Shown in pieces: positions 22,258 through 43,148 of a stretch of 64,000 nt of DNA. The notes under the pieces were generated by a model that did no database searches, had not been told where the DNA came from, and was given only the letters and a program-made list of their open reading frames with translations. Made by a program: the position numbers and the translations under genes. The DNA is from an uncultured Planctomycetota bacterium (GTDB lineage: Bacteria; Planctomycetota; Planctomycetia; Isosphaerales; Isosphaeraceae), in NCBI GenBank assembly GCA_963845755.1, contig CAWJTV010000019.1, positions 367,335 through 431,334 on the forward strand, read 5' to 3'. Every line of letters begins with the position of its first letter. The stretch's first letter is position 1.

Positions 22258-25200
22258 TCAGCTTCCGGTCCCTAAACCCACAGGGCAGGCTGTTCCTCCA
22301 CCTTTTCCTCCTCCCTTTTTCCCCCTCGTGCCTGGCTCACTTCGCAGCAGCTCTTCGGCCTCCGCGCGGAATGCCTTCAATTCGTCCTGATACTGCGACG
22401 GCAAGTCCTTGTGCGCCTCGGTCCACTTCAGGGCTCGATCAAAGCAGTCCCTGGCCTTCAGCGAATCCCCGAGTTTGGCATGGCCCATGGCGAGGAAGAG
22501 CAAGTCAAAGGCGTCGAACTGTCCCTTTCCGGCTTTGAGGCTGTTTTCGAGCGTGGCGATGGACTCTCCATAAAGTCCGTTGCGATACTGGGCCACGCCC
22601 AGCGTATTGAGGTACGCCTGGGAGTCGGGCGCCCGCTGGATGATCATCTTGGCGAGCTCCAGCCCTCGGACCGGGTCGCGCTCGGCCGCGGGGCCGGTGA
22701 GGAGACGCCAGGCCCTGCCATTGAGCTTCCCCGGCGCGTTTCGCGCGAGCTCCACCACCTTCTTGCGGTCGGCGTCGGCGTGGCTCCGGTCGTTCAAGGC
22801 GTCGTAACAGCGGGCGCGCTGAGCGTACAGGTCGGCGTACTCGGGGGAGAACTTCAGCAAGGCGGTGAGGTCCTCGACCGCCTCGGCGTGGCGCCCGAGG
22901 CGCTGGAGGGACTCGCCGCGGGCCCAGAGAGCGTCCAGGTGGCCTGGTTGCTCTAGCAGGACCCAGGTCGCATCGACGACGGCCTCCGCCCAATGGCCGC
23001 GGCGGTGCGCGGCCATGGCCCGCAGGCGGCGAACCTCGAAGTCGTCGGGGCGGATCGTTCGTGCGATCGACAGGTGGGCGAACGCATCCCCAAAGCGCCC
23101 GTCCGCGTGCGCCAGGGCCCCGAGCCGGGCGTGGGCATCGGCGTCGAAGGGATTGACCCAACAGGCGATGGCCGCCTGGATCAGCTCCCACCGGCGCAGT
23201 TGGGCCGCGTCGCTGGCCAGCTCCGGATCATGCACCTTCACGGCGGGCGCCGGCCACGTCATCGGCCGGTCCGTCTGCTCGGGGTACGGAGGCAAATCCA
23301 TGTCCAAACCCAGCTCGGCGAGCTGACTGCGTATGACCCTCAGGTCCCAGCGATAGAGCTGCCGGGACTCCCGGCCGATGGCATATAACCAGGTGCCGTC
23401 GGGGCTGAAGTTCCGCGGCTCGAGGCGAGTCTGCTCAGGGATGCTCAGGCGGGCCATCTCCTTGCCGGTCTCGAAGTTCACCAGCAGGATTTCACCATAC
23501 CCAGCGAGACAGGCGAGCAGCCGGCCGTCGGGCGCGAGCAGGCCGGACGGACAGGGAACGGCTTTGGGCTGCCAGGTGCCGACCTTGCACCAGTACGGCG
23601 AGCGATAGAGATTCGTGGTGTGCAGCCAGATGCCGTTTGCGCTGAAAACTGGGTTCGCAGTCGGATCTACCGGCAACACGGTTATCAACTTGCCCGTTGC
23701 CGCCTCCCAGACCTTGGCGTTCTCACCGTTTGGGTCGTCCCAGTGACTGCCGGTTACAACCCAGCGCCCATCAGGACTGACGTCGACGTGACTCAACTCG
23801 TACTGGGGCCCCAGGGTCAGTGTTCGGAGCGGCGGGCCCAGGTGAACGACTGTTGCGTGCGTCCCGCGCAAACGCCAGCACTCGCCCATCCCGGGAGGCA
23901 CCGAACGGCCTGTTGTCGATCGTTGTCGGCACGGTGTGCTGCGAGGTGACCCTTTGAGGCGGGCCCAGGCGGTAGCTCTCTGGCGAGCCGGCGTCCACGC
24001 GGACCGGCCAGCGGAAGACTCCATTCGCATTCCGACTCAACAGGGCGCCCGAGGCATCAAACCCAAACCGGCCCTCGATCGCCAGGTCCGCCGACAACAG
24101 CCACCCGTGCGGGTATAGCAGGTGGTAGAAGTCGTCCTCGATGATCGCCGGGGTGGCCGAGATCAACACCCGGTGTTCCCGGCCTGGGGCGAATCGCAGT
24201 AACTTGATAGTGTCGCCGGTGGATCGCGCCGCGAGAAACTGGTCATCGCGACAAAGGCTGAGCCAAGACCAGGCGGGCAGATGCCCCGAGCTGTTGCCCG
24301 GCATGTTGAACAGCTGCCTGCCCGTACCGGCGTCCCAGACGCGGAGGAGTCCGCTCCAATCGCCGCTGAGGAGGCGATCGCCGGTCGAGTTGAATCGTAG
24401 GCTGAGGCCGCTGCGAGAGAGCCCCTCATAGGGCAGGGTCAGTTGCTGCCCTGTCTCGCTGTCCCACAGGACGAGTTTTTGCTCAAAGCAGTCGATGGCC
24501 AGCCTTCTGCCGTCTGGGTTCCAGGCGACAGCCGACACGCCGTTGGAGTTGGTGAACCGGGGGGAAAGGAGGGTGCCGCCCTCGACGTCGTAGAGGCGAA
24601 CCTCGACCCCGCAAGCGACGGCCAGGCGGGGAAGGCGGGGGTGGAACATGGCGGCGTACGGGGGAACTCCGACCTGCCACTGCCGCACGACCGCCCCCGT
24701 TTCGGTGTCGTAGACGGTGAGCGTGCCGTCACGGTGGCCGACGGCAAGCTGCCGCCCGTCCGGCCGGAATGCCGTGGCCGACTCGGATATCCCGCGATCT
24801 TCCAGCACCAACTTCGCCTGGGGCCCATCGCAGCGCCACAGCTTCATCCAGTCCGACCCTTTCCCGGCGATGTGCGGGCTGCCCAGGGCCAGAAAACGGA
24901 GGTCCGGGCTGTGCCACTCCCCAGCCTTGGAACTCCCTGCAACGTGCAGCTCCCTTTGCCGCTCCTCCTTCCCATCGACCAGCCGACAGTAATAAGCGTG
25001 GCCATCGTCCACTTGCACGTAGCGCTGCCCGGTCGGGTCGGAGGCAATCTCGGGAGAGGGACTCGCCGTCTTCCATTGGGGCCCGCCATCAGCAATGTCG
25101 GGCAAGCACAGCGCGGCAATGGCCTCGTTGCGCAGCTCGTCGAATGTCTCGGGCGGCTTCCGCAGTCGCCGGGCCAACTGGACCGCCTCCTGAATTGCCT

Positions 25201-26683
25201 CCAGGCTTTTGAATCGCTGCCCGGATCGGCCGCTGTACCGCCGCGCCCGCGCCTCGGCGACCTGGGACGTGAACAGCTTCTCCAGCGCGACGCCTTCCGC
25301 CTGGCGCCGGTAGCCCAGCTCCCGCTCCAAGCGCAGGGCGAACACCGAGGAACTCACGGCCACGACCAGCAAGAGCAGCAGGACGGCGGCCGACAGGCCG
25401 GCCAGCCAGGGATTTCGGCGGCACCAACGCCAGGCTTGCTCGGCGGCGGTGGCGCGCCGCGCATGGATGGGGCGATCGGCCAGGAACCGGCGCAGGTCCT
25501 CCGCCAGCGCCTCGGCCGTCGCGTAGCGCTCCCTGGGGTCCTTCGCCAGGCACTTGAGCACTAGCGTCTCCAGATCGCGCGGGACCCGCGGGTCGAGCTT
25601 GCACGGCGGCCGGGGCGGCTCGTGCTGCACCCGGTCGATGAGCCGGCCCTTGTTCGTGTCGTCGAACGCCGGCCGGAGTGTCAGCAGTTCGTAGAGCGTC
25701 AGGCCCAGGCCATAGACGTCGCTCTGCGCTAGCGACTTACCCTCGAACCGCTCGGGAGCCATGAAGCGGATCGTGCCGACGATGTCGCCGGTCTGCGTCA
25801 GCTCCTCCGTCCCCTCGGCCTTGGCCAGCCCAAAGTCGGCGACCCACACCGTCCCCTGGAGATCGAGCAGCAGGTTCGACGGCTTGACGTCGCGGTGCAG
25901 GATGCCCTGGCGGTGGGCGTAGGCCAGCGCGTCGGCGACCTGGACGCCGAGCCGCGCCACGCCTCGGAAGTACTCCGCCTCGGGCCCGCACGGCGACAGC
26001 CGCGAGGTCAGCGACGAAGGATCGGGGCGTTCGGTCGGCTCGCCGGGATCGGCGACCGTGGGCGAATTGAACTGGCCGGTCAGAAGGCTGTGCGCCACGC
26101 TCCCCTCGGAAGGCAGTGCCTCACCGGCTCCCAGCGGCCGGCGGAGGCGGCGGACGTCGGCCAGCACCTTGTCGAGCCCCTCGCCCTGGATGAACTGCAT
26201 GGCGTAGTAGTGGACGCCGTCGCACTCGCCGACGCCGAAGACGGGCACGATGTTGGTGTGGTGCAGCCGACCGGCCGCCTGGGCCTCGCGGCGGAAGCGG
26301 GCCAGGTACGTCGGGTTCAGCAGCGCCGAGGACGGCAACACCTTGAGGGCCACGTGCCGGCCGAGCGATTCTTGCTCCGCCTCGTAAACGACGCCCATAC
26401 CGCCCCGGCCCACCTCACGCAGGATGCGGTAGTCGCCGAGGCGCTCCAGGTTGGCGAGGGCGGGTATCGCCGGCCGCTCGAAGTCGTCGGTGGCGTCGGT
26501 GGCCGGCTTCAGTTTCTCGATCTGCACCAGCGCCGGAAACAGATCGCGGATGTCGGCGGCGAGGTCGGGGTAACGGTCTGTGTACTCGCTCAGGGGCGGG
26601 TGCTTGCCCTGGCGGTGGCGTTCGACGAAATCCGCGGCCAACCGCTCCAGCACTTCATCGCGGGACGAATTGGACGAGGGCAT
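22258..26683 (-). CDS. Ser/Thr protein kinase with TM helix, WD40-like repeats and C-terminal TPRs; frameshift near 23850
   Basis: GRGGMGVVY, VALK, HRDVKPSN, DFG, GTIRFMAPE; AFRPDGRQLA repeats; YLNTLGVAQYRNG TPR tail in ORF 22258..24030. Confidence 0.92.
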
Positions 26684-26701
26684 TGCATTCCTCCGGGACG
26701 T

Positions 26702-27334
26702 TCAGCCGAAGAACCCGGGCACGGCGTCCAGAATCGCCTTGAGCCGTCGAATCGCCCGGATGTAGCGCTTGCTGGCCGCCGAGGTTTCGATCCCGAGGAC
26801 CTCGGCCGCCTCGATGTTGCTCAGTTCTTCGAAGTGACGCAGCACGACCACCTCGCGGTCGATGGGGTCCATGCTGTTGAGCACCTCGTGCAGCCGAAGC
26901 TGCATCTCCGCCCGAACGGCGGCCTGTGTGGGCGACGTCAGGCCGGCCAGCAGCTGCTGCGCCAGCGACGCGGACGAGGCCGCCGGCATTGGGCCGCGGT
27001 ACAGCGAGACCTCCCGCCCGGCATCGCGCATCTCCGCGCCCAGGTTGCGGCGATGCACATCGACGAGCCGCTGCCCCGTCAGGGACCGCAGCCAGATGTA
27101 GAACGGCACGGTCGGGGAGGCCGCGTACTCGGGGAAGCGCCGGGCCACATCCAGGTAAGTGTCCTGGAGGACGTCCGACGTGTCGATGCGACCGTACAGG
27201 CGGCGATCGAGGCGAAGCCGGACCATCTTGCACAGGCGGTCGCGGTAGCGGGCGAACAGCGTGGCTAGAGCCTGCTGATCGCCCTCTTTCGCCCGCCGCA
27301 GGAGGTCGGTCTCGTCGCTCGCGGGTGCGGTCAT
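26702..27334 (-). CDS. ECF sigma-70 factor, Planctomycete TIGR02984-like
   Basis: [33 protein letters not shown]...[23 protein letters not shown]; directly upstream of the kinase. Confidence 0.9.
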
Positions 27335-27499
27335 GTTGGTCCCCCTTAAGGTATATTCCGCACTGCAGGCCTGCGCGAGGACAGGAAAAAAGGTAGCCGG
27401 CCTGGTGATCAGCGACGGACTCAGCATACTCGGCCGATAACGATGCCAACAGTGACCGTACAAAAGGCCGCTGCCTGCGATGGGATCGTTCCCTGCCGA

Positions 27500-27780
27500 G
27501 CCCCGCGTGCCTACGATCGCCCCGAAGCCGGTGACCAGCGTCTTGTCGGTCAACTGTTGCCCGGCCGCCTTGGCCACGCCGAAGTCGATGATCTTGGGCA
27601 CCGACTTGCCGTCATAGAGGTCAACCAGCACGTTGGAGGGCTTGAGGTCGCGGTGGATGATGCCCTTCTGATGCGCGTGCTGCACCGCCTGACAGACCGG
27701 GATGAACAGTTCCAGCCGCTGCCGCGGCGTGAGGTGGTGCTCGTCGCAGTAGCGGGTGATGGGCACCCCTTGACGAGATT
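27500..27780 (-). pseudogene. Internal fragment of a second Ser/Thr kinase
   Basis: PITRYCD...[24 protein letters not shown]...IIDFGVAKA...IVGT; lacks the N-lobe and the C-terminal subdomains. Confidence 0.85.
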
Positions 27781-28265: not shown

Positions 28266-28694
28266 TCAGGCCCGTTCCCGCTTTTGGACCGAGCCCAGGA
28301 TGCCCGCGATGGTCGTCTTGGCGAGCTGCTCGTCCATCCGCCGCTCGACCTCGCCATAGACCGCTGTAAGGATGCCCTGGATGTTCCGACCCACCGGGCA
28401 GAGCGGGTTGGGCTCGCTCCGGTGCAGGGCAATCGTCTCGCCCTGCGGCTCGACCGCCCGGAGCACATTCAGGAGCGTGATTCGCCCGGCGGGGACCTTG
28501 AGCCGCCAGCCGCCGCCGATCCCGCCTTGGGACTCGACGATCCCGGCCTCGCGGAGGCGGCCGAGCAGGCGGCGGATGACCACGGGATTCGTGTTGACGC
28601 TCCCGGCGATGTACTCCGAGGTCTGGGCCTGGTCCGGCGTCAATGCGAGCAGGGTCAGGATGTGGACGCCGACGGTGAGCTTGGAACTGAGCAT
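28266..28694 (-). CDS. Rrf2 family transcriptional regulator (YwnA/HypR-like, single-Cys NPxCPVG type)
   Basis: TSEYIAGSVNTNPVVIRRLLGRLREAG; EPNPLCPVGRNIQ; GGAGAG RBS. Confidence 0.92.
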   Translation of the reverse strand: MLSSKLTVGVHILTLLALTPDQAQTSEYIAGSVNTNPVVIRRLLGRLREAGIVESQGGIGGGWRLKVPAGRITLLNVLRAVEPQGETIALHRSEPNPLCPVGRNIQGILTAVYGEVERRMDEQLAKTTIAGILGSVQKRERA

Positions 28695-28708
28695 CGCCTC
28701 TCCGATTC

Positions 28709-28725
28709 GCAACCATAATAGTTAC
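28709..28725 (-). promoter_or_regulatory. Putative Rrf2 autoregulatory operator overlapping a -10-like hexamer
   Basis: AT-rich imperfect palindrome GCAAC-CATAATA-GTTAC about 15 nt upstream of the Rrf2 start; reads TATTAT on the - strand. Confidence 0.6.
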
Positions 28726-29015
28726 GACTGACGTCGCTGTGAAGCCGATCTCCGAGGGGCGACCACCGAGGGCGAAATGTCTCGACCCACCCGGGTTCGC
28801 CACCTTGCCGCCAGGACTTGCCCGATCATCGCCCTGGCCGGATGGGCGGGTCATCCCGGTCGATCGGAGACCGCCTCCCGGCCCACGGCCCCGACCGCCC
28901 TCCGTGGTCGGGAGAGGTCCGTTGGCTCGCAGCTCTCCCTCCCGCGGGCACCCGGCGGGAGGTCGCACACCGGGATGGGCTCCCGGCCTCGTCGGCCGTT
29001 GGTCGCCCGACCGGG

Positions 29016-30152
29016 TCAGGTGTGGCAGACCCGTCGATAGATCGCCTCGTAGCCGGGGACGATGACGTCGGCCGAGAAGCGGTCCCTCGCGCGGCGCCGC
29101 GCCGCCGCGCCCATCGCGGCGCGGCGGGTCGGGTCGGCGATCAGGGCCTCCACGGCCCGGGCGAGTCCGGCCGCGTCGCCGGGGGGTACGAGGAGGCCCG
29201 AGATGCCGTCCTCCACCACCTCGGGGATGCCGCCGACGCGCGTCGCGACGCTCGGGCAGCCGAAGCACATCGCCTCGAGGATGCTCAGGCAGAAGCTCTC
29301 GGAATCGGACGCGAACAGCCCCAGGTCGGCCGCCTGCAGGTACTCCTCGATATCGTGGACGCGCTCCAGCACGACCACCCGGCCCTCGAGGCCGAGCCGC
29401 CGGACATCGTCGGCGAACGGCGCGAATCCCTCACCGGCGAGGATCACCAGGCGGAAGGATTCGCGCAGGCGCACCCGCGCGGCGGCCTCGAGCAGCAGGT
29501 CGACCCGCTTGACCGGGCGGAGGTTCGAGCTGTGCAGCACGACCGCCTCGTCCATCACGCCGAGCTCCTGCCGCACCTCGTCGCGCGTCCGGCGCGTCCG
29601 GCGCGGCTCGAAGTAGTTGTGCACCAAATCGATCGGCCGGTCGAAGCCGAGCAGGCGACGGGTCTCGTCGCGGAGGTACTCCGACACGACCGTGACGGCG
29701 TCGGAACACTCCAGGGCGTGGCGGATCGCCGGGCCGTAGCCCGGGTCGCGGCCGAGCAGGGTGGTGTCGGTCCCGTGCAGCGTGGCGACGACTTTCGGGC
29801 GCAGCTCGGGCGGCAGCATCGATCGCGCGAGGATGGCGGCCGTCGCGTGCGGCACGGCGTAGTGGACGTGCAGCACGTCGAGCCGATGCTCGCGGCTCAC
29901 CTCGGCCATCTTCACGGAGAGGGGCAGGGTGTAGTCGGGGTACTTGAACAGGCCGTAGGCGTTGATGCCCACCGGGTGGTAGCGGACGCGGGGCGCGTCC
30001 GGCGGGAGCCGGAAGGGCCGCTCGTAGCTGATGAAGTGCACGTCGTGCCCGCGGCGGGCGAGGTCGACACCCAGGGACGACGCGAGGATGCCGCTCCCCC
30101 CCACCGAGGGGTAGCAGGTGATGCCGATCCGGAGTGGGCGGTCACAGCTCAT
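29016..30152 (-). CDS. bshA: N-acetyl-alpha-D-glucosaminyl L-malate synthase (GT4)
   Basis: IGITCYPSVGGSG, HFISYERPFRL, LFKYPDYTL, LHVHYAVPHA, TLHGTDTTLLG, HSSNLRPVKR, ESF...LEAM. Confidence 0.9.
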   Translation of the reverse strand: MSCDRPLRIGITCYPSVGGSGILASSLGVDLARRGHDVHFISYERPFRLPPDAPRVRYHPVGINAYGLFKYPDYTLPLSVKMAEVSREHRLDVLHVHYAVPHATAAILARSMLPPELRPKVVATLHGTDTTLLGRDPGYGPAIRHALECSDAVTVVSEYLRDETRRLLGFDRPIDLVHNYFEPRRTRRTRDEVRQELGVMDEAVVLHSSNLRPVKRVDLLLEAAARVRLRESFRLVILAGEGFAPFADDVRRLGLEGRVVVLERVHDIEEYLQAADLGLFASDSESFCLSILEAMCFGCPSVATRVGGIPEVVEDGISGLLVPPGDAAGLARAVEALIADPTRRAAMGAAARRRARDRFSADVIVPGYEAIYRRVCHT

Positions 30153-30153
30153 G

Positions 30154-30891
30154 TTAGAACCGGCTCGCGTTGCGGCCCAGCCGCGCCAGGGAGTCAACGA
30201 CGGGCGGGTCGTTGGGGTAGAGGGCGATGGCGTGGCCGACGCCGGCCCGCAGGCCGTTGACCCGGGCGCGTGTCAGTTGCATCTCGACATAGGCGCGGGC
30301 CTTCACCTGCGTCGCGTGCGCCTGCATCGCGGCGGTCCAGGCGGCCAGGATCTCCGGGGCCGAGACGTCGACGAGGACCGGCGAGACGTCGCGGGGCTCG
30401 GCCCCCGGCGACGTCGCGTAGAAGAAGAGCTGCTCGATCGCGTGCGGGGCGAGTCCGCGCAGCTCGGCGACGCCGCCGTAACGGGCGAGCCGGGTCGCGT
30501 CGCGCACGAGGCGGCCCAGCCGGACATGGTCGGGGTGCTGGTTCTCGACCGGCGTCGGGGCCAGGACGGTGGCCGGACGCAGCCGTCGGATCACGCCGGC
30601 CAGGCGGATCGCGTGCGCGGCCTTCTCCTCGAGGTGGGCATCGCCGTCGAGCTCGATCAGCTCCAAGGACGCGCCGAGCGCTCGCGCGCCGGCCCGGCAC
30701 TCCTCCAGTCGTTCCTCGGGCGTGCCGTGGCTGGCCGACTCGCCGCGCGAGCAGACGACCAGGTGCGCAGGGCGCCCGGCGCGGGACTCGAGGGCCACGA
30801 CGCCGCCGCAGCCGAACTCGACGTCGTCGGGATGACAACCGAACGCCAGCAAGGGCGCCGGCTCAGGTCGGGGGTTCGACATAGGCTTCAT
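30154..30891 (-). CDS. bshB1: PIG-L family deacetylase, BshB1-like
   Basis: AFGCHPDDVEFGCGG, SRGESASHGTPEER, HPDH; immediately upstream of bshA. Confidence 0.8.
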   Translation of the reverse strand: MKPMSNPRPEPAPLLAFGCHPDDVEFGCGGVVALESRAGRPAHLVVCSRGESASHGTPEERLEECRAGARALGASLELIELDGDAHLEEKAAHAIRLAGVIRRLRPATVLAPTPVENQHPDHVRLGRLVRDATRLARYGGVAELRGLAPHAIEQLFFYATSPGAEPRDVSPVLVDVSAPEILAAWTAAMQAHATQVKARAYVEMQLTRARVNGLRAGVGHAIALYPNDPPVVDSLARLGRNASRF

Positions 30892-31648
30892 CAGGTCGCT
30901 CGATCAGGTCGCGGACGATATAGGTGATCTCGGGCGCATCATCCTTCCGGAGGTAATCCTGCTCGCTGGCCCCCGACACGTAGTGGGTGCACCGGATCAC
31001 CGATTGCATCCAGCGCAGCCGGGTGTCGCGCGTCGGGCTGATCTGCTCGCGGGTGTACGCCGCGTCGGGGAGGTCCACGTACTGGTCGCCCCCCTTGTAA
31101 AGCCTGGGACGGCCCTCGAGCAGCCGGGCCCGCACGACTTCGCCCTCGTATGGCACGTCAACGTAGTAGTCTTCCACGTCGCACGCCGCCCGGCGGAAGG
31201 CCGGGTCGCTCGAGCGGGCGACGCGGATGCCGTCAAGCAGGCCCATGTGTCGGTACATCTCCAGGCAGAAATCGGCGACGGTCTCGGCCTCGACCGCGCG
31301 GAACGTCTCGGCCCACTCGGGGCCGACGTAGGGGCGGATCTGGTCGGCGGTGCGGGCCTGCCAGTCGGCGCGGACCCGCTTGAGGTACAGCGGCGAGAAC
31401 TTCCGCTGCACCTGGTTGTCGAAGGCGAAGTTGAGCTGGAGCGGCTCGCCCGTCTTGCGGTGGCGCAGGGTCGTGCGGGTCTCGCGGAAGTCGTGGTCGC
31501 TATCGTGGCAGAAGAAGACGACCTCGCCGCCGATCTCCGACTGCAGCCGCCGCGCCGTGGCGATCTTGGCGTAGAGATAGCGCCGGGGGAAGAAGCCGCA
31601 CGGCTGCTGGCCGAAGCAGATGACGGGGGTGGTCGCGGTCGCGGTCAT
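30863..31648 (-). CDS. Short (261 aa) BshC-like putative cysteine-adding ligase
   Basis: GQQP..FP..YLYAKI, FFCHDSDHDFRE, ISPTRDTR...HYVSGASEQDY parallel the BshC motifs GQQxxxxxGPLY..K, W.A.EDHD.xE and S.NV..RP...GPGEI.Y; sits in an operon with bshB1 and bshA. Confidence 0.7.
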   Translation of the reverse strand: MTATATTPVICFGQQPCGFFPRRYLYAKIATARRLQSEIGGEVVFFCHDSDHDFRETRTTLRHRKTGEPLQLNFAFDNQVQRKFSPLYLKRVRADWQARTADQIRPYVGPEWAETFRAVEAETVADFCLEMYRHMGLLDGIRVARSSDPAFRRAACDVEDYYVDVPYEGEVVRARLLEGRPRLYKGGDQYVDLPDAAYTREQISPTRDTRLRWMQSVIRCTHYVSGASEQDYLRKDDAPEITYIVRDLIERPDEAYVEPPT

Positions 31649-33360
31649 GGGTTCGCAGGCGCCTCCTCAGGCGAAGGGCCGGGGCCTAGCGCGGCCTGGA
31701 GTACCAGGCTGAAGCCGACGCACGCCGCGCAGCCGATCAGATTGTACCAGAGGTAGCTGATATCCAGGCTGGCGAAGAGCGCGAACACCAGGAGCTGCGC
31801 CGCGATCGCCGCCCAGAAGACGGCGGTCCCCCGCACCCGCCGCAGGAAGAACGCCACGAGGAACAGGCCGAGGACCACGCCGTAGAAGATCGAAGCCACG
31901 ATGTTCACCGCCTGGATCAGGTTCTCCGCCAGGCTGGCGAAGAGCGCGAAGCCGACCGCGACCGCACCCCACATCACCGTGAACCACCGCGTGGCGGTCA
32001 CGTGGTGCGCGTCATCGGCCTGTCGCGCCACGAGGAGCCGATAGAAATCGACCGTCGTCGTCGTCGCCAGCGCGTTCAGCTCGGCGGCCTTCGACGAGAG
32101 CGTGGCGCCGAAGAACGCGGCGATCAGCAGACCGATCATCCCGTGGGGGAGGTGGCCGAGGATGAACGTGATGAACACGTAATCCGTGTCCGGGGATTTC
32201 GCCCGGGCGCTCAGCGATTCGAGGGCCGCCTTCGCCTCGGCCCGGACGGCCTGGCTCCGGTCCTGGGCGGCCAGGGCTCGCGACCGCGCCCCGGCCACGG
32301 CCGAGGGGTCGCCGTACTCCCGGGCGGAGAGCCAGTCCTCGACGGCGCACCGCTTCTCGGCGTGGAGCTCGCCGTACCGCCGCTCCAGATCCCGCAGGCG
32401 ACCGTCGGGGTCGCGCTCCAGTCCACGCTCCCACACGACCGGGTTGAAGTACACGGGCGGCGGCTCGAACTGGTAGAAGACGAACACCATCGTCCCCAGC
32501 AGCAGGATGAAGAATTGCATGGGGATCTTGACCACGGCGTTGAACATCAGGCCCAGCCGGCTCTCGCGGAGCGATGTTCCCGAGAGGTAGCGCTGGACCT
32601 GCGACTGGTCGGTGCCGAAGTACGACAGCGCGAGGAAGAAGCCCCCGAGCAGCCCCGACCAGAACGTGTACCGTCGGCTCGGATCGACCGAGAAGTCGAC
32701 CCCGTTGAGCTTGCGGAAGCCGCCCGCCAGGGCCAGGGCGTCGTCGAGCCCCACCCCAGGCGGCATCCGGCGCAGCAGGACGACGAAGGCCGCGAACATC
32801 CCGCAGAAAATCACGCCGAGCTGGTACTTCTGCGTCACGTTCACCGCCTGGCTTCCGCCCGCGGCCGTGTAGGCGATCACGACCAGCCCCGTGAGCAGGA
32901 TCGTGGCGTCGGTGCGCCAGTGCAGCACGGTCGAGAGGATGATCGCGGGCGCGTAGACGGTGATCCCCGCCTGAAGGCCGCGCTGGAGGAGGAACAACGC
33001 CGCGCCCAGCAGCCGGGTCTTCGCGTCGAACCGGCGGCCGAGGTACTCGTACGCCGTGTACACGTTGAGGCGACGGTACATTGGCAAGAACACCGCCGCG
33101 ATGAGGATGAGCGCGAGCGGGGCGCCGAAGTAGTTCTGGACGAACCCCAGGCCGTCCTGGTACCCCTGGCCGGGCATCGAGAGGAACGTGACCGCGCTGG
33201 CCTGGGTCGCCATCACCGAGAGGCCGATGGCGGCCCAACCCGTGCGCCGGTCGCCCTTCAAGTAGTAGCTCAGCTCCTGTCGCCCACGCGTCTGCCAAAC
33301 GCCATAGACTGCGATCCCGACCATGCTCCCGACCAGCACCAGGAAGTCGAGCAGATTCAT
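31645..33360 (-). CDS. Sodium:solute symporter (SSS) family transporter
   Basis: GLSVMATQASAVTFLSMPGQGY, TAYEYLGRRFD, YFGTDQSQVQRYL; many TM helices. Confidence 0.93.
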   Translation of the reverse strand: MNLLDFLVLVGSMVGIAVYGVWQTRGRQELSYYLKGDRRTGWAAIGLSVMATQASAVTFLSMPGQGYQDGLGFVQNYFGAPLALILIAAVFLPMYRRLNVYTAYEYLGRRFDAKTRLLGAALFLLQRGLQAGITVYAPAIILSTVLHWRTDATILLTGLVVIAYTAAGGSQAVNVTQKYQLGVIFCGMFAAFVVLLRRMPPGVGLDDALALAGGFRKLNGVDFSVDPSRRYTFWSGLLGGFFLALSYFGTDQSQVQRYLSGTSLRESRLGLMFNAVVKIPMQFFILLLGTMVFVFYQFEPPPVYFNPVVWERGLERDPDGRLRDLERRYGELHAEKRCAVEDWLSAREYGDPSAVAGARSRALAAQDRSQAVRAEAKAALESLSARAKSPDTDYVFITFILGHLPHGMIGLLIAAFFGATLSSKAAELNALATTTTVDFYRLLVARQADDAHHVTATRWFTVMWGAVAVGFALFASLAENLIQAVNIVASIFYGVVLGLFLVAFFLRRVRGTAVFWAAIAAQLLVFALFASLDISYLWYNLIGCAACVGFSLVLQAALGPGPSPEEAPANP

Positions 33361-33539
33361 GAAAAACTCCGCTCGAGGACGACCAGGAGCACCACCCACG
33401 CGACGAGGCAGATGAGCACGACCGCATAGACGGCCGGCCAGGTGCGGGGCCACGGCAGTCCGGTCGCCCCGTCAAGCAGTTCGTCCGCAATGACGGGCGG
33501 GTGCGGCGGGCCGGCTCGATCGTCGTCGTGGATGGTCAT
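33357..33539 (-). CDS. Small (60 aa) single-TM protein of the kind that precedes SSS genes
   Basis: PWPRTWPAVYAVVLICLVAWVVLLVVLERSFS; ATGA overlaps with both neighbours. Confidence 0.75.
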   Translation of the reverse strand: MTIHDDDRAGPPHPPVIADELLDGATGLPWPRTWPAVYAVVLICLVAWVVLLVVLERSFS

Positions 33540-36039
33540 TTGCCGAGCGAGACCAGGTTTGCGAAGAGCCGATAGGCCCCCGGGACCCCGGCGGGGAGTT
33601 GCCGGAAGAACACGAGTCCCGTGTAGACGAAGTGGCCTCGGCCGTACTTCGCCACGAGCAGGCCCCCCTTCAGTGGCGTTTCGCCCGGGTCGCCCGACGC
33701 CAGGATCGGCGTGAAATGCGAGTCCCATTGCGTCGGGAAGTAGATGCCGCGCTCCTGCACCCAGCCTTCCATGTCGGCCTCGCCGATCTTGTTGGGCGTC
33801 GTGAGCACGGGGTGGTCGGGCGCGAGGAAAGTCACCGGTGCGTTCTCGTCGGTGACGCGGGCGTCGGACAGCCGCAGGTCGTAGGGGGCGAGGCGGTTCG
33901 TCCGGAGCCCGTTCGGCCGGTTGTACTGGGCGACGACCGTCCCGCCCCCCTCGACGTAGGCGAAGAGCGCCGGCAGGTGGGCGGCGAGGTCGTCGCGCAC
34001 GTTATAGGCGCGGACGCCGATTACCACGGCGTCGAGGCCGGCGAGCTTCTCGGCAGTCAGGTCCGTGCCGGCGAGCCGTGTGACCTCGTAGCCCATCTCC
34101 TCGAGGCCCTCGGCCACGCTGTCGCCGGCGCCGGGGATGTAGCCGACGCGACGCCCCTTGATCGTGAGGTCGAGGGTCAAGACCTTCAGGCGCGGGGGGC
34201 TGGAGCAACTGCACGGGGATATGCTCGTGCTTGATCACGACCCGACCGGAGTTCCAGGTCCGGTCGCCCATGCGGGCCTCGGCCGTGATGGCGGCCGTAG
34301 CCGATCCGGGCGGGGCCTTGACGGTGAACGACAACCGCGCACGGTCGCCGGCCGTCGCCAGCCGGAACGGCTGCGACGCGGGGGTGACCGTCCACCCGGC
34401 CGGCGCACGGAGGGCGAGCGTGCCCGCCGCGCCGTCGCGCGCGGCCGTAACTTCGACGTCGACCGGGCGGCTCGGCCCCCGGGGCGAAGAGCCGCACCTG
34501 GGAGAGAGGCCGCAGGGCCACCGGCGCGATCACGTCGAGCCGCCGGGCCGGCTGGCCCTGCTCGGCGGCCTGCACGGGTACGTCAGCGATCTCCAGGGTC
34601 TGGCCGCCGACCTGGAATCGGTGCTCGACCGGGAAGGCCGTCGGGTTCTCGGGTTGCCCGATCAGAGCGGGATTGACCTTGAAGAGGCCGACGGAGTGCT
34701 CCTCGCGCAGCCAGTACGGTTGGCCGAGCGGGGCATCGGACGGCAGCGTCTGGTCCACGTCGCGGCTGGCGGGCCGCCCGGCCGTCAGGTCGATCGGCTG
34801 GTCCACCGACCGACCCGTGAGCGGGTAGGAGACGGACAACCAGCGGACGGGGACGCCGGCCGCGACCGTCGCCGAGTGCCGCAGCTTCAATACCTCGCCC
34901 GGCACGACTTCGGCGCGGGGAACGGTCGTCTCGACCACGAGCCCGAGGCAGCCCTGGATTGCCCGGTCGAGCTGGCGGCGCTTCTCGGCCACGAGGGGGT
35001 CGGCGGGGAGCGAGGCGAGCCGCTCTCGGATCGCCAGCAGGCGGGGCACGATCGCGGCGGGGGCCTTCGCGATCGAACTTCGCCACCGCCTCGTGGGCCA
35101 GCTTCGCGACCTCAGGCCCCGCCCGGGCAAGCGGGCCCAGGTCGTGTTGACGCCGTCCATGATGTCTTTCGTCGCCGGCTCGCCGCCCAGGAGCGTAAAC
35201 GAGTCGGTGCGTGGGCCGCTCCCCCCGCGCCCGCCGAAGTTGCCGAAGCCCTGACTTTTGTGCATCGAACGGCTGCGCCCGGCGATCGTGCCGAGCGGCT
35301 CGTGGGTGACCGGGTCGTCGCCGCCGATCTCGACGCGGAGCCCGCCGGCACCGCCGCCACCCCGGCCGAATCCGCCGCTGTTCTGGAGGATCCGTTTGGG
35401 CTGCCAGGCGGCCAGCTCGCCGATTTGTTCGGGGAACGCCCCGGGGTCGCCCGCGAGCCGGAAGGCCTCGACGGCCAGGATGGCGGACGCCGTGTGGTGG
35501 CCGTGGCCGCCCCCCTGGGGCGAGAAGCGGGTGACGATCACGTCGGGCCGGAACGCGCGGATCACCCGCACGATGTCGGAGACGACGGCCTTCCGATCCC
35601 AGATCCGGAGCGTCTCGGCGGGGTTCTTCGAGAAGCCGAAGTCGATGGCGCGGGTGAAGAACTGCCGGCCGCCGTCGAGGCGGCGGGCGGCGAGGAGCTC
35701 CTGGGTGCGGATCACCCCCAGCTCCTCGAAAAACTCGGGGCCGATGACGTTCTGACCGCCGTCGCCCCGCGTGAGCGACAGATAGGCCGTGCGGTAGCCG
35801 CGGCCGCGCGCGAGGTAGGCGATGAGCTGGGTGTTCTCGTCGTCGGGGTGCGCGGCCACGTGCAGGACGCTCCCCAGCTCGCGGAACCCGCGCAGCTCAC
35901 GTAACGTGTCCTGGGCCGTCATCGGCTCCGCGGCACGGCCGCCGGAGATCGGCCCGGTCAGCAGGGCCCCCGCCAGGAAGAGTGGGACGAGCCGAGCGGC
36001 GGGCCGATTCGACCCGCGGGAGCGTCGTGGTGCGGACAT
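33536..36039 (-). CDS. Large secreted PIG-L/LmbE-family deacetylase with NEW3-like Ig and C-terminal GATase-like domains; several frameshifts
   Basis: Signal-like N-terminus; AAHPDDENT, TRGDGGQN, DFGFSK, HGHH, RSMHKSQGFG; C-terminal GYIPGAGD...GWVQERGIYF...FRQLPAGVPGAYRLFANL. Confidence 0.88.
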
Positions 36040-36124
36040 GGCCAGACCTCGGAGTTGGGAAGTCCATCGCGGCCGAACAGGAGGGCCGCGATGGAAGTCA
36101 GCGACAACGTGAGGCCGTTCGGCC

Positions 36125-36706
36125 TCACTTCTTCACGGTAAACGGGATCGAGTACTGGGTGCTCTCCCACATCATCTTGAGCAGGCCCCCGCCGGCCTCC
36201 GGCTCGATCGCCATCGTGAACTGGTCGACCGTCTTGTCGAGGGTCAACTTCTTCAGATCCACACGCGCCAGCTCGTTGGCCTTCTCCGAGTCCTCCTTGT
36301 AGGGGATGCCCCACTGGCCGGTCTTCTTGTTGATGACGAGTTTGGCGGTACCGTCCTCGTTGGGCACGGTGAACAGCGAATACGTGCCGGGGGCGAGCGA
36401 GTAGCCGCCGAGCTCGATCGGCTGCGCGGTCGTGAGCAGGGTCGCCTCGTCGGCGCCCGTGCGCCAGACCTTGCCGTAGGGGACCAACCCGCCCCAGATC
36501 TTGCGGGCCTCGGTGGTCCCGGGTTTCGTGGTGTAGGGGCGCCCGTAGACGAGCTTCATCTCGTCGCCGTCGATCTTGGCCGTGATCGTCTCGTGCGGGC
36601 TGATGCGCTGACGCTGCTTCTTCTTGGCGGCCTGGGCCATCGCGGGCGTCGCGGTGACGAGCGCCGCCGCGACGACGAGGGCGAGTGCGATTCCGAGCTT
36701 CCTCAT
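36125..36706 (-). CDS. Secreted DUF2911 domain protein
   Basis: Signal peptide; SP...YGRP...GGLVPYGKVWRTGADEAT...GTYSLFTVP...QWG. Confidence 0.9.
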   Translation of the reverse strand: MRKLGIALALVVAAALVTATPAMAQAAKKKQRQRISPHETITAKIDGDEMKLVYGRPYTTKPGTTEARKIWGGLVPYGKVWRTGADEATLLTTAQPIELGGYSLAPGTYSLFTVPNEDGTAKLVINKKTGQWGIPYKEDSEKANELARVDLKKLTLDKTVDQFTMAIEPEAGGGLLKMMWESTQYSIPFTVKK

Positions 36707-38302: not shown

Positions 38303-39794
38303 TCATTCCCCCTTTGTCGTCCTTCGTTCCGTCCCTTTTGTCGTCCCCTGCCCCTTGTTGTCGGGCGGGGCACCGGATCGCAGGCCGCGGCCCCGTCTGC
38401 GCTCCGGTTCCGGTTCACCCTCGACGACGACCCACTCGTAGATGCCGATGCACATCTCGTCGTTGGTCCCCTCGCCCCACCTGACGAGCTTGGGAGGTTT
38501 GTTCCGGTTGGCCGGATTCGTGTCGGAGTTATCGAAGTGCGCCTCTACCTCGAACCACGAACCCTTCGGCACGCGGATCGGCTCCTTGAACGCGTAGGTT
38601 CCCTGCCAGTTGAAGTTCCAGTGATCGATCTTGATCAGCGGGATACGCCGCTTGCCATCGGGCAGGACAGCCGTGAAGGTGAAGTCCTTGCCGAGCCAGT
38701 GCATGTGGGGCATCACCGAAGTGATCAGAATATCACGGTCGAGCGGACGGGCCATCAGATTGGAGCCGGGCCGGGTCGATGCCTTGACTTCATACTGGGG
38801 CGCCCCGGCGGGAATGACCATGGCATCCACTTCGCGGAATAACTCAAGGATTCCAATGCGTTTCCCCGCCTTCTGGGCTTCCTCGACCTTGGCGCGGGCG
38901 GCCAGCGCCTGGCGTATCGTCAGGTTGGGAAAGACGAATCCGGTATGGACCTCGCGCGGCAACGGCTTCCTGGAAAGATAGAGGCCCACGGAGGTGGCGT
39001 CGGCCTCGGGCTTACCGGTCTTGTGGTAGTGGACCTGGATCAAGATGTCGGCCCCCTTGGGCAGCATGTAGCCGGTGCCGTCGGGACAGTAGCGGGACTT
39101 GGCGCCCGGGGTCCAGATCGGCAGGAAGGCGGAGATGGGCACTCCATCGCCGAATCCACCCAGGTCGTAGTAGCCGGGGCCCGGGTCGGCCGCATCCAGC
39201 TCACGACCCCGGCCCGACGGATCCACGCCCGCGATGATATGGTGCACGACCGAGCGATTACCGGGATGAAAATCGACCGCGCGAATCCAGCGATCCTCGG
39301 GAAAATTCGTCTGGAGCACGAAGACGCGGAAGTCGTCGCTGCCGGTAGTGGCCAGGTGGTAAGGTTCGGGCATCGTCAGGGTCAGGTCGGGCTCGCCGAG
39401 CGCCCAGTCCGAAGAGAACGTCCGGGGCGCAGGGCGCCTCCTTGGGTTCGCCTTCCGGGCACCCGGCATCGACCCACGACTGCAGGGTGGCGATCTCGTC
39501 GTCGGTCAGCACCCGCGCATCGCGGAACGGGCCGCCGAAGCTCGAGGAGGCCGGCCACGGGGGCATCACCCGCTCGCCGGTCACGTGCGCCAGGTCGGAC
39601 CCGCGCTTGCGGGCCTGCTCGTAGGTGAGCAAGGAGAACGGCGCCACCTGATTGGGGCGGTGGCAATCCTGGCAGCGCTCTTGAAGGATCCGGACCACGT
39701 CCTTGTGGTAAGTCGGGGCCGGTTTCTCGGCCGCCGGCAACGTCGTGCTCGCCGCCACGGCCGCGACGCCGCAGAGGAAACTCAATCTCCACAT
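38303..39794 (-). CDS. Secreted CxxCH + copper type II ascorbate-dependent monooxygenase-like protein; frameshift near 39440
   Basis: CQDCHRP...APFSL, MPPW; PGNRSVVHHI, LIQVHYH, PHMHWLGK, WNFNWQ, DEMC. Confidence 0.85.
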
Positions 39795-40177
39795 CGAATG
39801 GCACGCCAAGACTCTGCTCCTTTAACGGGTTTCTACCGCTGGATATTCGCCCGCAAACCGAACCGAATCTCACTACCCTCAGGTCAGATGTCAGGTTTCC
39901 GCAGTCCTGGCCATGCATCGGGGGAGGCCAAAGGGGACACCCTACGCCTGTTCGCGCATGGATTGCCGGACGGGCTACCTCCTTCATGACACCTGGCAGC
40001 GGCTATTGTCAAGGGCAGTCGAATTCAGAGCTCTTGTTCGGAGGAATGGGGACAGAGTATGACCTGAGGTGATGTCCGGCCGGAAGTCCGGGTGTAGGAG
40101 GGGGGCTCTGTCCCCCGACCGTCAGCTAGATTTAACTGCTGGCCCAGGCTGAGCCGTGTTGCGCCTCAGCCCATGCT

Positions 40178-40370: not shown

Positions 40371-42863
40371 CTAGGGCAAACCCGGCCTCGGTGCGGTCGC
40401 GGCCGGGGACACTTGCCATTGGAGGATTCCGGCCGATAGGTTTGGCTGGAGCTTCGCCTCGATGCGAAGTGCCATCGTCTCGACGGGCTCGAATTCGACC
40501 GTATTGGCGGTATCCAACTTGGTCCCGAATTCGTCGCGCGCTCGGACAGGCTCCCATGTGCCGTCGGGCTTGCGGAAGACCAGCCGCCAACTCCTCGGCG
40601 CGGCGCAGTGGCGGCCGAGTCAACTGTCGTCCCACCAGTAGACGCTCGTACCGCCGACCCTGCGCGGCTGGTCGAAGTCGTACTGTACCCACTCGTCCGT
40701 TCCCCTCCGGTCCCACCAGGTGAACCTCCTGCGCGTCCCGTCCGACGAATTCTTTGGTGCGACGCCGTCGTTCATCGCACCCACGGCGTCGTTGACGAAG
40801 CAGTGAGAGGCTGTCGGAGTGGAGAGGGACGCGATCGTCGGGCGCATGGCGCCGGCCGGGGTCGTCGGCACCCAGACGATCATCTCGGCCGGGCCGCGAT
40901 TGGCGTTCGCGTAGTAGGGGATCGCCACGACCTCGGTCTCGAACGGCTCTCCACCTCCAATCGGCAGTCGTTCGGCCGCGGCGCGGACGATCGTCACGCC
41001 GCCGAGAAGCTCGGGACGCCATTCGGACGCGATCGATGCGCGTTCCGGGAGCCATACGTCTCGCACTCGGCCTCGATTGTCAGGGGACTCGAGGCAATAC
41101 ACGATCGGCCCACGCATGAGGGCGGCACGACCGCGGTCGCTTTCGACGCGGTCGTCGGCGCGCACGAGCTGCGACGGCATCGCCATGTGGATGAGGACCA
41201 GGTCCCCCGCACGCCACTGACGGCGGAGCTCCGCATATCCTCGGACGATCGTCGGCGAGGCGACGGGCTGGCCGTTGATGGAGATGCGGAACGCGTCTGG
41301 CCCGGCCATGGCCGTGGCGTAAAGGCCGCCGTTCATCACGCCGCCTCGACACCAGGCTGGGACTCGAATGCGGACGTCGAACGTGGCGGGCCGTTCGGGA
41401 TCGACGGCCAACCGAACGTCGCCATCCCACGGGTAATTCGTCCGCTGGGTGAGGGAGAGCCGCTTCCCGGTCTCGCCTTGCCAGTTGATCTGCCGCGCGA
41501 CCCAATGAAGAGGTTGACGTAAAGGCCGGCGGCGTCCGTCGCGTAGACGTACCGGGGCAGCGCCCCCATGAGCTTCAAGAACATTGGCGGGCAGCATGGG
41601 CAGGCGTGCCAGGACCATCGCGCGCGGTCCTTGCGGGCGTCCAGTGGGTTTTCGTAGAAGTAAGCATTGCCTTTCAACGAGCCGCCAGCGAGCGCACCGT
41701 TGTAGAGCGAGCGTTCCAACTCGTCGAACTTCGCGGCGTCGGCCGTGGCGAGGAACAGGTTGTAGTCGAGGAATCCGCACGCGACGGCGGCGCAGGTTTC
41801 GAGGTAACCGTCGTTCGGCAGGACGAAGTCGCCACCGAACTTCTCGTCTCGCGCGATCGCTCCGACGCCGCCGGTGATGTAAAGGCGGCGCGTGATCATG
41901 TTACGCCAGAGGCGCTCGGCCGCGTTCAACGTACTGCGGCTGCTCGCCCGCGACACCGAACGCCGCGACGCCTGCCGCGAGAAGCGTCGCTCGCACGGCG
42001 TGCCCTTCGATGGTCGCTTGCTGAAGCACTGGCAGGTGGTCCTGACCGTATTCGCCGAAGTTCTGTCGGCCCTCATGGTGGCCTCGAGCATCGATCCAGA
42101 AGTGGGCGAGGTCGAGGTAGTCCCTCTCGTTGACCCGTACGCCCAGGTCTCTCTTGAGCTCAGGATGCTCCCGGAACAGCTCGTAAAGTCGGACGAATGA
42201 TTCCTCACTCAGCGCGTGCCCGGGGATGATGTTTTTCCGCGGCGGAGGCCCCATCACCGCCACCATGCCGTTCGCCGCCCGGACGGCCGTGGCGAGCAAC
42301 TTCGTCTTGCCCGTGGAGCGGTAGTAGTGGATACCGGCCTCGACAAGGCAGCCGATGTTGTACAGGTCGTGCTGCTCGCGGTCGTTTCCTCCATTCTGGC
42401 CCCAGCGGTGGCCGGGTTCGCGCAGTTGCGTATAGGTATTGATGTAGCCGTCGGGGTCACGCGCCGCCGCTGCGCTAATCCTGTCGATGTAGCCGTCGAT
42501 CCGCGCCTCGAGCGAGGGGTCGGGCTCTTGCGCCATCAGGTCGACCGCGCCACGAATGAGCTCGTAGATCAGCCCGTCGTACCACGGCGGGCCGCCGTGC
42601 GGGGCGTCGAGTTCATCGCGGGCGACGTGGTCGAAATTCCTAAAGGCGCCATCCCTCTCGAACTTGTCCAGACAGTCTTTGATCGTCACCGCCCGCCAGG
42701 TCTTCAACTTCGGAGACCAGAACGCGTCGTCGATCGTCACGCGGTTCGCCGTGACAGGAACGGGCCGTACCGCCGAGGCATCGGACGCGAATGACGACGT
42801 CACGGCCGCGGAGCACACGAGAAGGGCGGACAGCGGACACCTGACGCGGTCAGCGAACCTCAT
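40371..42863 (-). CDS. GH127 beta-L-arabinofuranosidase-like glycoside hydrolase (DUF1680) with C-terminal accessory domain; about 3 frameshifts
   Basis: DGYINTY, HDLYNIG, GHAVRA, YITGGVG, YLETCAA, YFYENPL, CPCCPP, TNYPWDG, RGPIVYCLE, IPYYANANRG. Confidence 0.9.
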
Positions 42864-43148
42864 CACTCTTTTCCCAGGACTCGCGGAGTCCATCGAGAAG
42901 CATCCCGCCGGACGGCGAGGCTCCGAACGGCGGCTCCCTCGCGTTCCCACGCTGGCCGCGTTTGCAGATGCCACGTCAAGTTCCGGGAGCCTTACGCCTA
43001 GAAAACATCAACGAAGCTTAACGGATGCTCCTGGAAAAAGAAAGGACGTCGAAACCGCCCGCCGAAGTGGTCTGGCGACTCTCCATTCCCGCCGAAGGGA
43101 TGGAACAATCGGTCGAGATTCCGAGGATCTCGGAAAGCGCTCCGGTCG

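Follow-up and report, generated by a model that had tools for sequence, protein, structure and literature searches.

A conserved gene cassette with a half-size BshC joins bacillithiol-type synthesis genes to a predicted envelope module in a planctomycete

The closest described counterpart of the genes reported here is the bacillithiol pathway of Bacillus subtilis, formed by BshA, BshB1 and BshC (BshC structure 4WBD; families TIGR03998 and PF10079, canonical BshC also matching PF24850). Bca (BshB2) and Mca, the S-conjugate amidases of bacillithiol and of mycothiol in the LmbE/PIG-L superfamily, are known as cytoplasmic hydrolases whose cysteine adduct is exported, and cleavage of a cysteine-glucosamine (Cys-GlcN) amide with recycling of the glucosamine part is proposed for them. 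In Proteobacteria, glutathione is salvaged in the periplasm by gamma-glutamyl transpeptidase together with a peptide importer, and transporters of the sodium:solute symporter (SSS) family having a small membrane partner are represented by the ActP/YjcH type. A 2018 review describes BshC as dimerising through an extended coiled coil, and regards neither a reconstitution of the BshC reaction nor bacillithiol import or export as established (PMC5790435). Here we describe a cassette of seven genes on the minus strand (29016-36706) of a 64,000-nucleotide stretch of DNA from an uncultured soil planctomycete of the Isosphaeraceae (hereafter the window). It shares with the B. subtilis pathway BshA, a BshB1-like deacetylase of the PIG-L family and the Rossmann core and motifs of BshC, while it differs in being joined to an envelope module. 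The cassette is real and conserved, and its bacillithiol part is a half-size variant of the known pathway. With a probability of roughly one half, it would combine bacillithiol synthesis with an extracytoplasmic hydrolysis that frees the sugar-malate core for re-import. Such a role would follow the logic of glutathione salvage, in which a low-molecular-weight thiol is split extracytoplasmically and one portion is taken back up, with unrelated proteins and chemistry. A literature search, which left out most subscription papers and all supplements, found no description of the cassette, the short BshC or the module, and DUF2911, the domain encoded by the first gene, occurs in one paper.

The half-size protein is encoded by an open reading frame (ORF) of 261 residues (30863-31648). 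Neither this ORF nor the 60-residue ORF two genes upstream of it matched any Pfam or NCBIfam model at E 0.01, PF10079 and TIGR03998 included. The kinship of the 261-residue protein was seen only in its predicted fold (pLDDT 88) and in profile comparison. Foldseek returned B. subtilis BshC 4WBD as the sole match below E 0.001 (E 4.9e-9), and the same structure was placed first among 48,161 chains (Z 17.6, rmsd 3.5, 245 aligned residues), followed by class I lysyl-tRNA synthetase with Z 12.7. ESM Atlas gave PF10079 clusters at 0.91. Profile-profile comparison of 14 such proteins with canonical BshC reached a probability of 97.3% (E 6.5e-11), and residues 1-261 aligned over their full length with positions 82-408 in the 543-residue canonical profile. 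The GQQ, xDHD, SP..R and Y.G..E..Y motifs of the BshC Rossmann core are retained; the protein does not have the first 80 residues, a helical segment in the interior and the C-terminal region with the coiled coil. Identity to BshC is 14-16%, and the cassette proteins have 258-262 residues against about 540 in B. subtilis. On the basis of fold and profile, the protein is a true though halved relative of BshC, named here mini-BshC, and would carry the cysteine-adding activity; its active-site residues were assigned by conservation. The first-pass annotation had labelled this gene BshC-like, and the kinship stands while the half-size form had escaped it. Several cysteines are kept in mini-BshC, and C128 is invariant in 14 diverse sequences.

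Relatives of mini-BshC are numerous, 6766 being present among proteins of 143-457 residues, and none of the best 120 possesses a Pfam domain. A truncated or broken bshC was rejected as an explanation, as all 157 of 157 relatives share the short end at position 258-272. Searches with PF10079 found nothing in the genome of the window (to E 1) or in five other mini-BshC genomes, neither mini-BshC nor its profile retrieved BshC from the PDB by sequence, and no mini-BshC was found in viral contigs. Cytochrome P450 reductase, a weak match at E 0.01, was rejected as a relative.

In genomes with bshA, mini-BshC replaces the long BshC, and the bshA genomes among Verrucomicrobiota have one form each. 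The Verrucomicrobiota sample comprised 151 genomes, 150 of them drawn and one, the centre genome, picked because it was gene-positive. bshA was present in eight, seven having mini-BshC and one long BshC, and the remaining 143 had neither. Mini-BshC was also found in three genomes of the Acidobacteriota sample that do not have the long form, and in 0/200 of the Planctomycetota sample. Canonical BshC was found in 113 and BshA (at E 1e-60) in 106 of these 200 Planctomycetota, and both in none of 13 listed genomes from the class of the window. The bsh genes are common in Planctomycetota and unusual only in this class; since 113/200 possess canonical BshC, their occurrence in a planctomycete, which had been considered the notable point, is not the novelty. 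No glutathione synthetase scored over its cut-off in five genomes. The cassette itself is rare. The Acidobacteriota sample also holds BshC forms of intermediate length, 390-442 residues (L250:5183-6415, L251:4937-6112, L252:4750-6078 and L253:4633-5805), and one Acidobacteriota-titled assembly, G357, shows three mini-BshC matches and two BshA (L229, L232, L233/L176), by duplication or in a mixed bin. According to a 2018 survey, which used 30% identity and similar length as criteria, a low-molecular-weight thiol is neither documented nor predicted for Verrucomicrobia and Planctomycetes (PMC6282198). For a 2025 preprint, the criteria were similar length and 80% coverage; its main text mentions neither phylum, and its Table S1 or dataset may list them (10.1101/2025.07.06.663066). 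Because similar length is demanded in both, mini-BshC would be excluded.

To describe the neighbourhood of mini-BshC, the best 80 of 584 metagenome loci and the best 80 of 579 genome loci were taken, a set biased toward close relatives and partly redundant, in which only loci with enough flank were counted. The SSS gene lies upstream of mini-BshC in 107/107 loci, the N-terminal domain of a large PIG-L in 84/85 and DUF2911 in 67/73, while BshA lies downstream in 89/89 and a BshB-like gene in 111/119. Between PIG-L and SSS, a small motif-bearing membrane ORF precedes SSS in 107/108. This seven-gene order is near-invariant across the 160 related loci and is not a matter of chance. Beyond shadow frames no additional conserved neighbour was found, no other gene recurring in more than 5/64 long loci. 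By record title, the carriers are mostly Verrucomicrobiota, along with Planctomycetota, Methylomirabilota, Acidobacteriota and others; the closest locus relatives are Isosphaeraceae records with 96% identity. The bshC-bshB-bshA order is as in other Planctomycetota (L293).

In the window, which belongs to contig C19 of a 14.3-Mb assembly that is 88% complete, ORF calling placed eight genes from 36706 to 28266, all on the minus strand and at the positions given by the first-pass annotation. Pfam and NCBIfam name DUF2911, PIG-L, SSS transporter, a second small PIG-L, BshA and Rrf2 among them. The five tight junctions are also as first described: stop and start overlap as AAATGA/ATGA at 33539/33536, 33360/33357 and 31648/31645, the 30891/30863 junction is an overlap of 29 bases and a gap of one base is left at 30154/30152. 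The proposal of one coupled unit holds for these junctions and is in line with the order kept in 160 loci; it fails for DUF2911, which stands 85 bases from PIG-L and has no translational coupling. Contigs of one RNA run cover DUF2911, PIG-L and parts of SSS; expression level and co-transcription are not deducible from them, and they were not used as support.

BshA (29016-30152, 378 residues), a glycosyltransferase of family GT4 and putative GlcNAc-malate synthase, scored 394.9 bits against TIGR03999 (cut-off 273.7), which bears out the first naming of the gene, and matched B. subtilis BshA 5D00 with E 1.7e-85. Its YPSVGGSG, LHGTD, SN.R.VK and ESF....EA segments align with 2JJM, 3MBO and 5D00. 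Cassette and canonical BshA have 86 positions in common, including H126, T128, N210, R212, K215, E285 and E293, which also match the B. subtilis and B. anthracis enzymes. Family membership is firm and GlcNAc-malate synthesis may be expected from it. In a quick tree, BshA of the window and five other planctomycete rows fall inside a mostly Verrucomicrobiota clade, apart from canonical planctomycete BshA; we deduce no donor of a gene transfer from it. Residue 288 is a fixed cysteine in the cassette form, giving ESFC in place of the canonical ESFG. The neighbouring gene (30154-30891, 245 residues) encodes a small cytoplasmic PIG-L beside bshA that carries the HXDD+H zinc motif (as HPDD and HPDH) and matches TT1542, 2IXD and 6P2T in the PDB. 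TIGR04001 is its best family; the score of 117.9 bits is below the cut-off of 182.5, so we call it BshB1-like and not bshB1 as before. Among five genomes chosen for an absent or partial adjacent BshB-like copy at one locus, four carry a BshB-like gene somewhere.

The large PIG-L/LmbE zinc hydrolase (33536-36039; PF02585, E 6.6e-17; about 840 residues in relatives) is composed of a signal peptide, an HPDD+H catalytic domain, a NEW3-like beta region and a conserved C-terminal domain. H65, P66, D67, D68 and H183 are invariant in 49 sequences, predicting an intact zinc site. The sequence conforms to the HXD1D2+H metal motif with ligand spacing of 97-148 described in PMC4101496, according to which every characterised LmbE-like enzyme takes an N-acyl-glucosamine core as its substrate. 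Like Bca/BshB2 and Mca it has the HXDD+H motif with a spacing of 115 residues, and Mca gives its best NCBIfam score (TIGR03446, 52.2 bits; cut-off 277); BshB2/Bca gives less (TIGR04000, 27.6 bits; cut-off 195). It differs from these enzymes in being three times bigger, in its signal peptide, in the extra beta and C-terminal domains, and in scores far under the cut-offs. The profiles of Mca and MshB gave 52 vs 36 bits, scores too weak to separate amidase from deacetylase. On inspection, signal-peptide-like N-termini are present throughout the cassette-type homologues and are missing from the alphaproteobacterial type. The protein is predicted to be exported, unlike the cytoplasmic Bca and Mca, and cleavage of the Cys-GlcN amide with glucosamine recycling is proposed for it as for them.

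A single gene had been assumed for this enzyme. Family and position are right; what had gone unnoticed is that the gene is frameshifted in the assembly. Mapping of an intact relative of 843 residues (L081) placed it over three frames (36033-34471, 34478-34191 and 34192-33539), with an additional short compensated shift near 35070-35130; insertions or deletions lie near 35128, 35115, 35072, 34469 and 34189. The gene is a single ORF in 81/85 related loci. Three independent DNA runs yielded contigs of close relatives in which the additional bases of positions 35072, 35114/5 and 35128 are absent; the indels at 34469 and 34189 are seen in two of these runs. Elsewhere in this DNA the kinase gene at 22258-26683 and the gene region 38303-39809 are split likewise. 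The frameshift is probably an assembly error.

The next two genes encode a 60-residue single-pass membrane protein (33357-33539; helix at residues 37-55), overlapping both neighbours, and an SSS transporter of 571 residues (31645-33360; TIGR00813, 220 bits, cut-off 184) with at least 10 hydrophobic segments. The small protein is likely a partner subunit of the transporter. Among solved structures, the SSS protein matched SMCT1 (E 3.9e-45), SMVT (7.9e-45), NIS (1.7e-41) and 5NV9 (3.7e-36), and glucose transporters with 1e-20 to 1e-22; by this comparison it appears closer to anion and carboxylate than to glucose transporters. With ActP/YjcH, SMCT1, SMVT and the SiaT-type 5NV9 it shares the fold, a tiny coupled upstream membrane gene and carboxylate-carrying nearest relatives. 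It differs from them as a separate subfamily with an insertion of about 90 residues forming an extra loop in mid-protein. The first gene of the cassette (36125-36706; PF11138, E 1.3e-37) encodes a DUF2911 protein of 193 residues with a signal peptide, hydrophobic at residues 6-24, and is predicted to be exported and to act as an accessory to PIG-L and SSS. The model of this protein shows an all-beta mature domain (pLDDT 89.8) for which no fold match was found by Foldseek (best E 0.033) or by a wide structure search (best Z 5.9), which is no evidence of a new fold or of a function. Complex prediction of SSS with DUF2911 scored 0.00, gave no verdict and was not used as support. Many cassettes have two DUF2911 paralogues of about 190 and 290 residues, and both domains are fused in one ORF of 444-448 residues in L033, L057, L067 and L131.

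Whether large exported PIG-L goes with bacillithiol genes beyond the cassette was examined with an intact sequence as query, in the 200 Planctomycetota, 121 genomes of the Acidobacteriota sample and 151 Verrucomicrobiota. Large PIG-L was present in 34/200 Planctomycetota, and all 34 have canonical BshC; none of the 87 BshC-negative genomes carries it. It was present in 66/121 genomes of the Acidobacteriota sample, 64 of them with BshC (61 canonical and 3 mini), while 21 had BshC only and 34 neither; the tally of 61 includes G383, a record flagged unpublished that enters no other result. In Verrucomicrobiota it occurs in the same 7/151 genomes as mini-BshC. Fisher's test gave p near 1e-10 for the co-occurrence, related genomes not being independent. 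Large PIG-L also belongs to bsh operons of three different gene orders, some with long BshC and some with mini-BshC, as in L234 (DUF2911-long BshC-BshB-BshA-PIG-L-SSS) and in L239 and L240 (mini-BshC-BshA-PIG-L-SSS-DUF2911), and L235-L238 have a long bshC within about 10 kb of it. The link to bacillithiol in three phyla is well supported by this distribution; the module does occur with bsh genes elsewhere, where its absence would have counted against the original proposal. SSS adjoins PIG-L in 14/16 loci fetched from the Acidobacteriota sample.

Aspartase/fumarase superfamily enzymes eliminate fumarate from 2-substituted succinates, and EDDS lyase and S-succinylcysteine lyase are fumarate-eliminating members of the aspartase/argininosuccinate lyase superfamily. 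A lyase of this ArgH superfamily stands beside large PIG-Ls, together with a sugar ABC importer, a sugar kinase and a ROK regulator, in catabolic clusters of Alphaproteobacteria, Bacillus and Deinococcus (L184, L185, L186, L291, L292 and L337). In the Pseudomonadota sample, the phylum of G358, a distant large PIG-L was found in 2/200 genomes, both without BshA, and both loci have the arrangement pfkB-ugpC-argH-like-permeases-binding protein, to which ROK-PIG-L lies divergent. Plasmids of Aminobacter and Parasedimentitalea carry this cluster in their annotation, and all 21 of 21 alphaproteobacterial plasmid records with large PIG-L hold the lyase a few kb away, nine of them being Aminobacter near-copies. 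Bacillus sp. F19 combines the lyase with a GlcNAc-kinase-like gene, ROK genes and a signal-peptide PIG-L, and Deinococcus wulumuqiensis has ROK, lyase, large PIG-L, sugar ABC transporter, small PIG-L and kinase. Against the family profile, both halves of the proteobacterial and Bacillus PIG-Ls gave matches (E 1e-135 to 1e-190), and the protein of Deinococcus matched mainly by its catalytic domain. The lyase is an ArgH-like paralogue beside a second, housekeeping argH. It is absent from the genome of the window and from G201 and G438, with one weak match each, and gives a clue to the substrate only. GlcN-malate is a 2-substituted succinate, malate carrying glucosamine on its oxygen, and hydrolase, lyase and kinase together would convert N-acyl-GlcN-malate to an acyl group, fumarate and glucosamine phosphate. 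The lyase cluster, occurring in genomes without bsh genes, points to the same sugar-malate substrate as the bsh context does, and is a candidate route for the use of GlcN-malate as food. An N-linked succinyl sugar is an alternative substrate.

From these genes the following route may be drawn. BshA would couple UDP-GlcNAc and malate, the BshB1-like enzyme would take off the acetyl group, and mini-BshC would attach cysteine, giving in the cytoplasm bacillithiol (Cys-GlcN-malate) or a close variant; that the product is of the bacillithiol type is quite likely. The signal-peptide PIG-L, periplasmic by prediction, would cut the N-acyl amide of an exported, leaked or scavenged N-acyl-GlcN-malate, with bacillithiol, its disulfide, S-conjugates and GlcNAc-malate as candidate substrates, and the cysteine adduct would stay outside. 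SSS and its small partner would then bring in GlcN-malate, the presumed direct substrate of the mini-BshC encoded by the neighbouring gene. Such a periplasmic salvage role is plausible. More tentatively, at somewhat less than even odds, the large PIG-L family would define an undescribed extracytoplasmic traffic of bacillithiol. Producers of several Gram-negative phyla would cut the exported thiol or its conjugates in the periplasm and re-import GlcN-malate; non-producers among Alphaproteobacteria, some Bacillus and Deinococcus would consume GlcN-malate by hydrolase, fumarate lyase and kinase; and mini-BshC would be the minimal cysteine-adding enzyme that gives a thiol to Verrucomicrobiota and Planctomycetia lineages.

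Several observations weigh against the synthesis-and-salvage reading. Large PIG-L is often found without the symporter, SSS adjoining it in only 6/17 Planctomycetota loci fetched. The module is optional, large PIG-L being missing from 79/113 BshC-positive Planctomycetota and 21/82 BshC-positive genomes of the Acidobacteriota sample. Two genomes of the latter sample have large PIG-L with no bshA or BshC match, and six further alphaproteobacterial plasmid records hold the lyase with no large PIG-L match. Because the genomes are related, the co-occurrence counts overstate independence. A true lesion of PIG-L in this strain, less likely than an assembly error, would also count here. On the side of synthesis, the BshB-like score lies under its cut-off and cassette BshA forms a separate long-branch clade with 13 differently fixed positions, so the product may differ. 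Neither the YpdA/Bdr reductase nor bacilliredoxins (Brx), redox partners in the Firmicutes-type bacillithiol system, were detected in mini-BshC genomes: YpdA over cut-off was found in 0/19 of these, though also in only 4/26 long-BshC genomes, and BrxA/B and BrxC in 0/5 mini-BshC genomes, these assemblies being incomplete.

If synthesis is read rightly, the envelope module could still take up whole bacillithiol, the disulfide or a precursor for use as a thiol or cysteine source, or serve a periplasmic redox cycle, and its PIG-L could act on another N-acyl form, for example by deacetylating exported GlcNAc-malate in a synthesis split between compartments. The co-occurrence of PIG-L and BshC fits this equally, as do the unseparated Mca and MshB scores and the 8/119 loci without an adjacent BshB-like gene, one of which belongs to a genome without any BshB1 match. 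A deacetylase outside is unneeded, since 111/119 loci and 4/5 tested genomes keep the cytoplasmic BshB-like enzyme, and a co-encoded amide hydrolase would destroy the intact thiol before import; we regard this possibility as unlikely. Somewhat less probable again is a variant compound, made with another acid acceptor or with an amino acid other than cysteine attached by mini-BshC, perhaps no thiol at all, which the module would handle. The low identity of mini-BshC and its missing coiled coil, the divergence of BshA including ESFC, and the lack of YpdA and Brx matches in the genomes examined would agree with it, while the 86 shared BshA positions, the joining of the same module to long BshC in L234 and the bridging of the size gap by the intermediate BshC forms argue against it. 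That the module is unrelated to bacillithiol, scavenging for instance cell-wall or other N-acetylated amino sugars and travelling with bsh genes by ancestry or co-regulation, is improbable: most BshC-positive Planctomycetota do without it, homologues occur in bshA-free genomes and the samples are phylogenetically clustered, but none of the BshC-negative Planctomycetota carries large PIG-L, bsh operons include it in three orders with both kinds of BshC, and a fumarate-eliminating lyase, superfluous for a plain amino sugar, stands beside the homologues of bshA-free genomes.

A BshC of 260 residues without coiled coil would show which part of the protein suffices and offers an easier protein for study, by which the BshC reaction becomes testable. 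The SSS protein is a concrete candidate for a bacillithiol-related transporter, by which the question of import or export becomes testable. The large exported PIG-L family, the transporter subfamily and DUF2911 obtain a first functional lead and are tied to a catabolic cluster mis-annotated as 'argH'. If the synthesis-and-salvage reading is true, this would be the first bacillithiol-related transporter, and a thiol would be gained for Verrucomicrobiota and Planctomycetia lineages in which none is predicted.

The eighth gene, encoding an Rrf2-family regulator (28266-28712; PF02082), lies 303 bases downstream and outside the cassette. It had been described as following the unit; it does not belong to it, and was rejected as an operon regulator, because it has a sigma-70-like site of its own at 28743-28715 and follows the cassette in only 2/80 loci with enough flank. 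Its second copy in the genome, 88% identical, is on contig C24 (C24:44730-45164). Elsewhere in the window, at 22258-27766, an ECF sigma factor lies beside a Ser/Thr kinase that includes WD40- and TPR-like parts, a typical planctomycete pair; the kinase is split over two frames, and the sigma ORF starts with a kinase fragment. At 40620-42974 a probable glycoside hydrolase gene, which we take to be GH127-like, extends across several frames.

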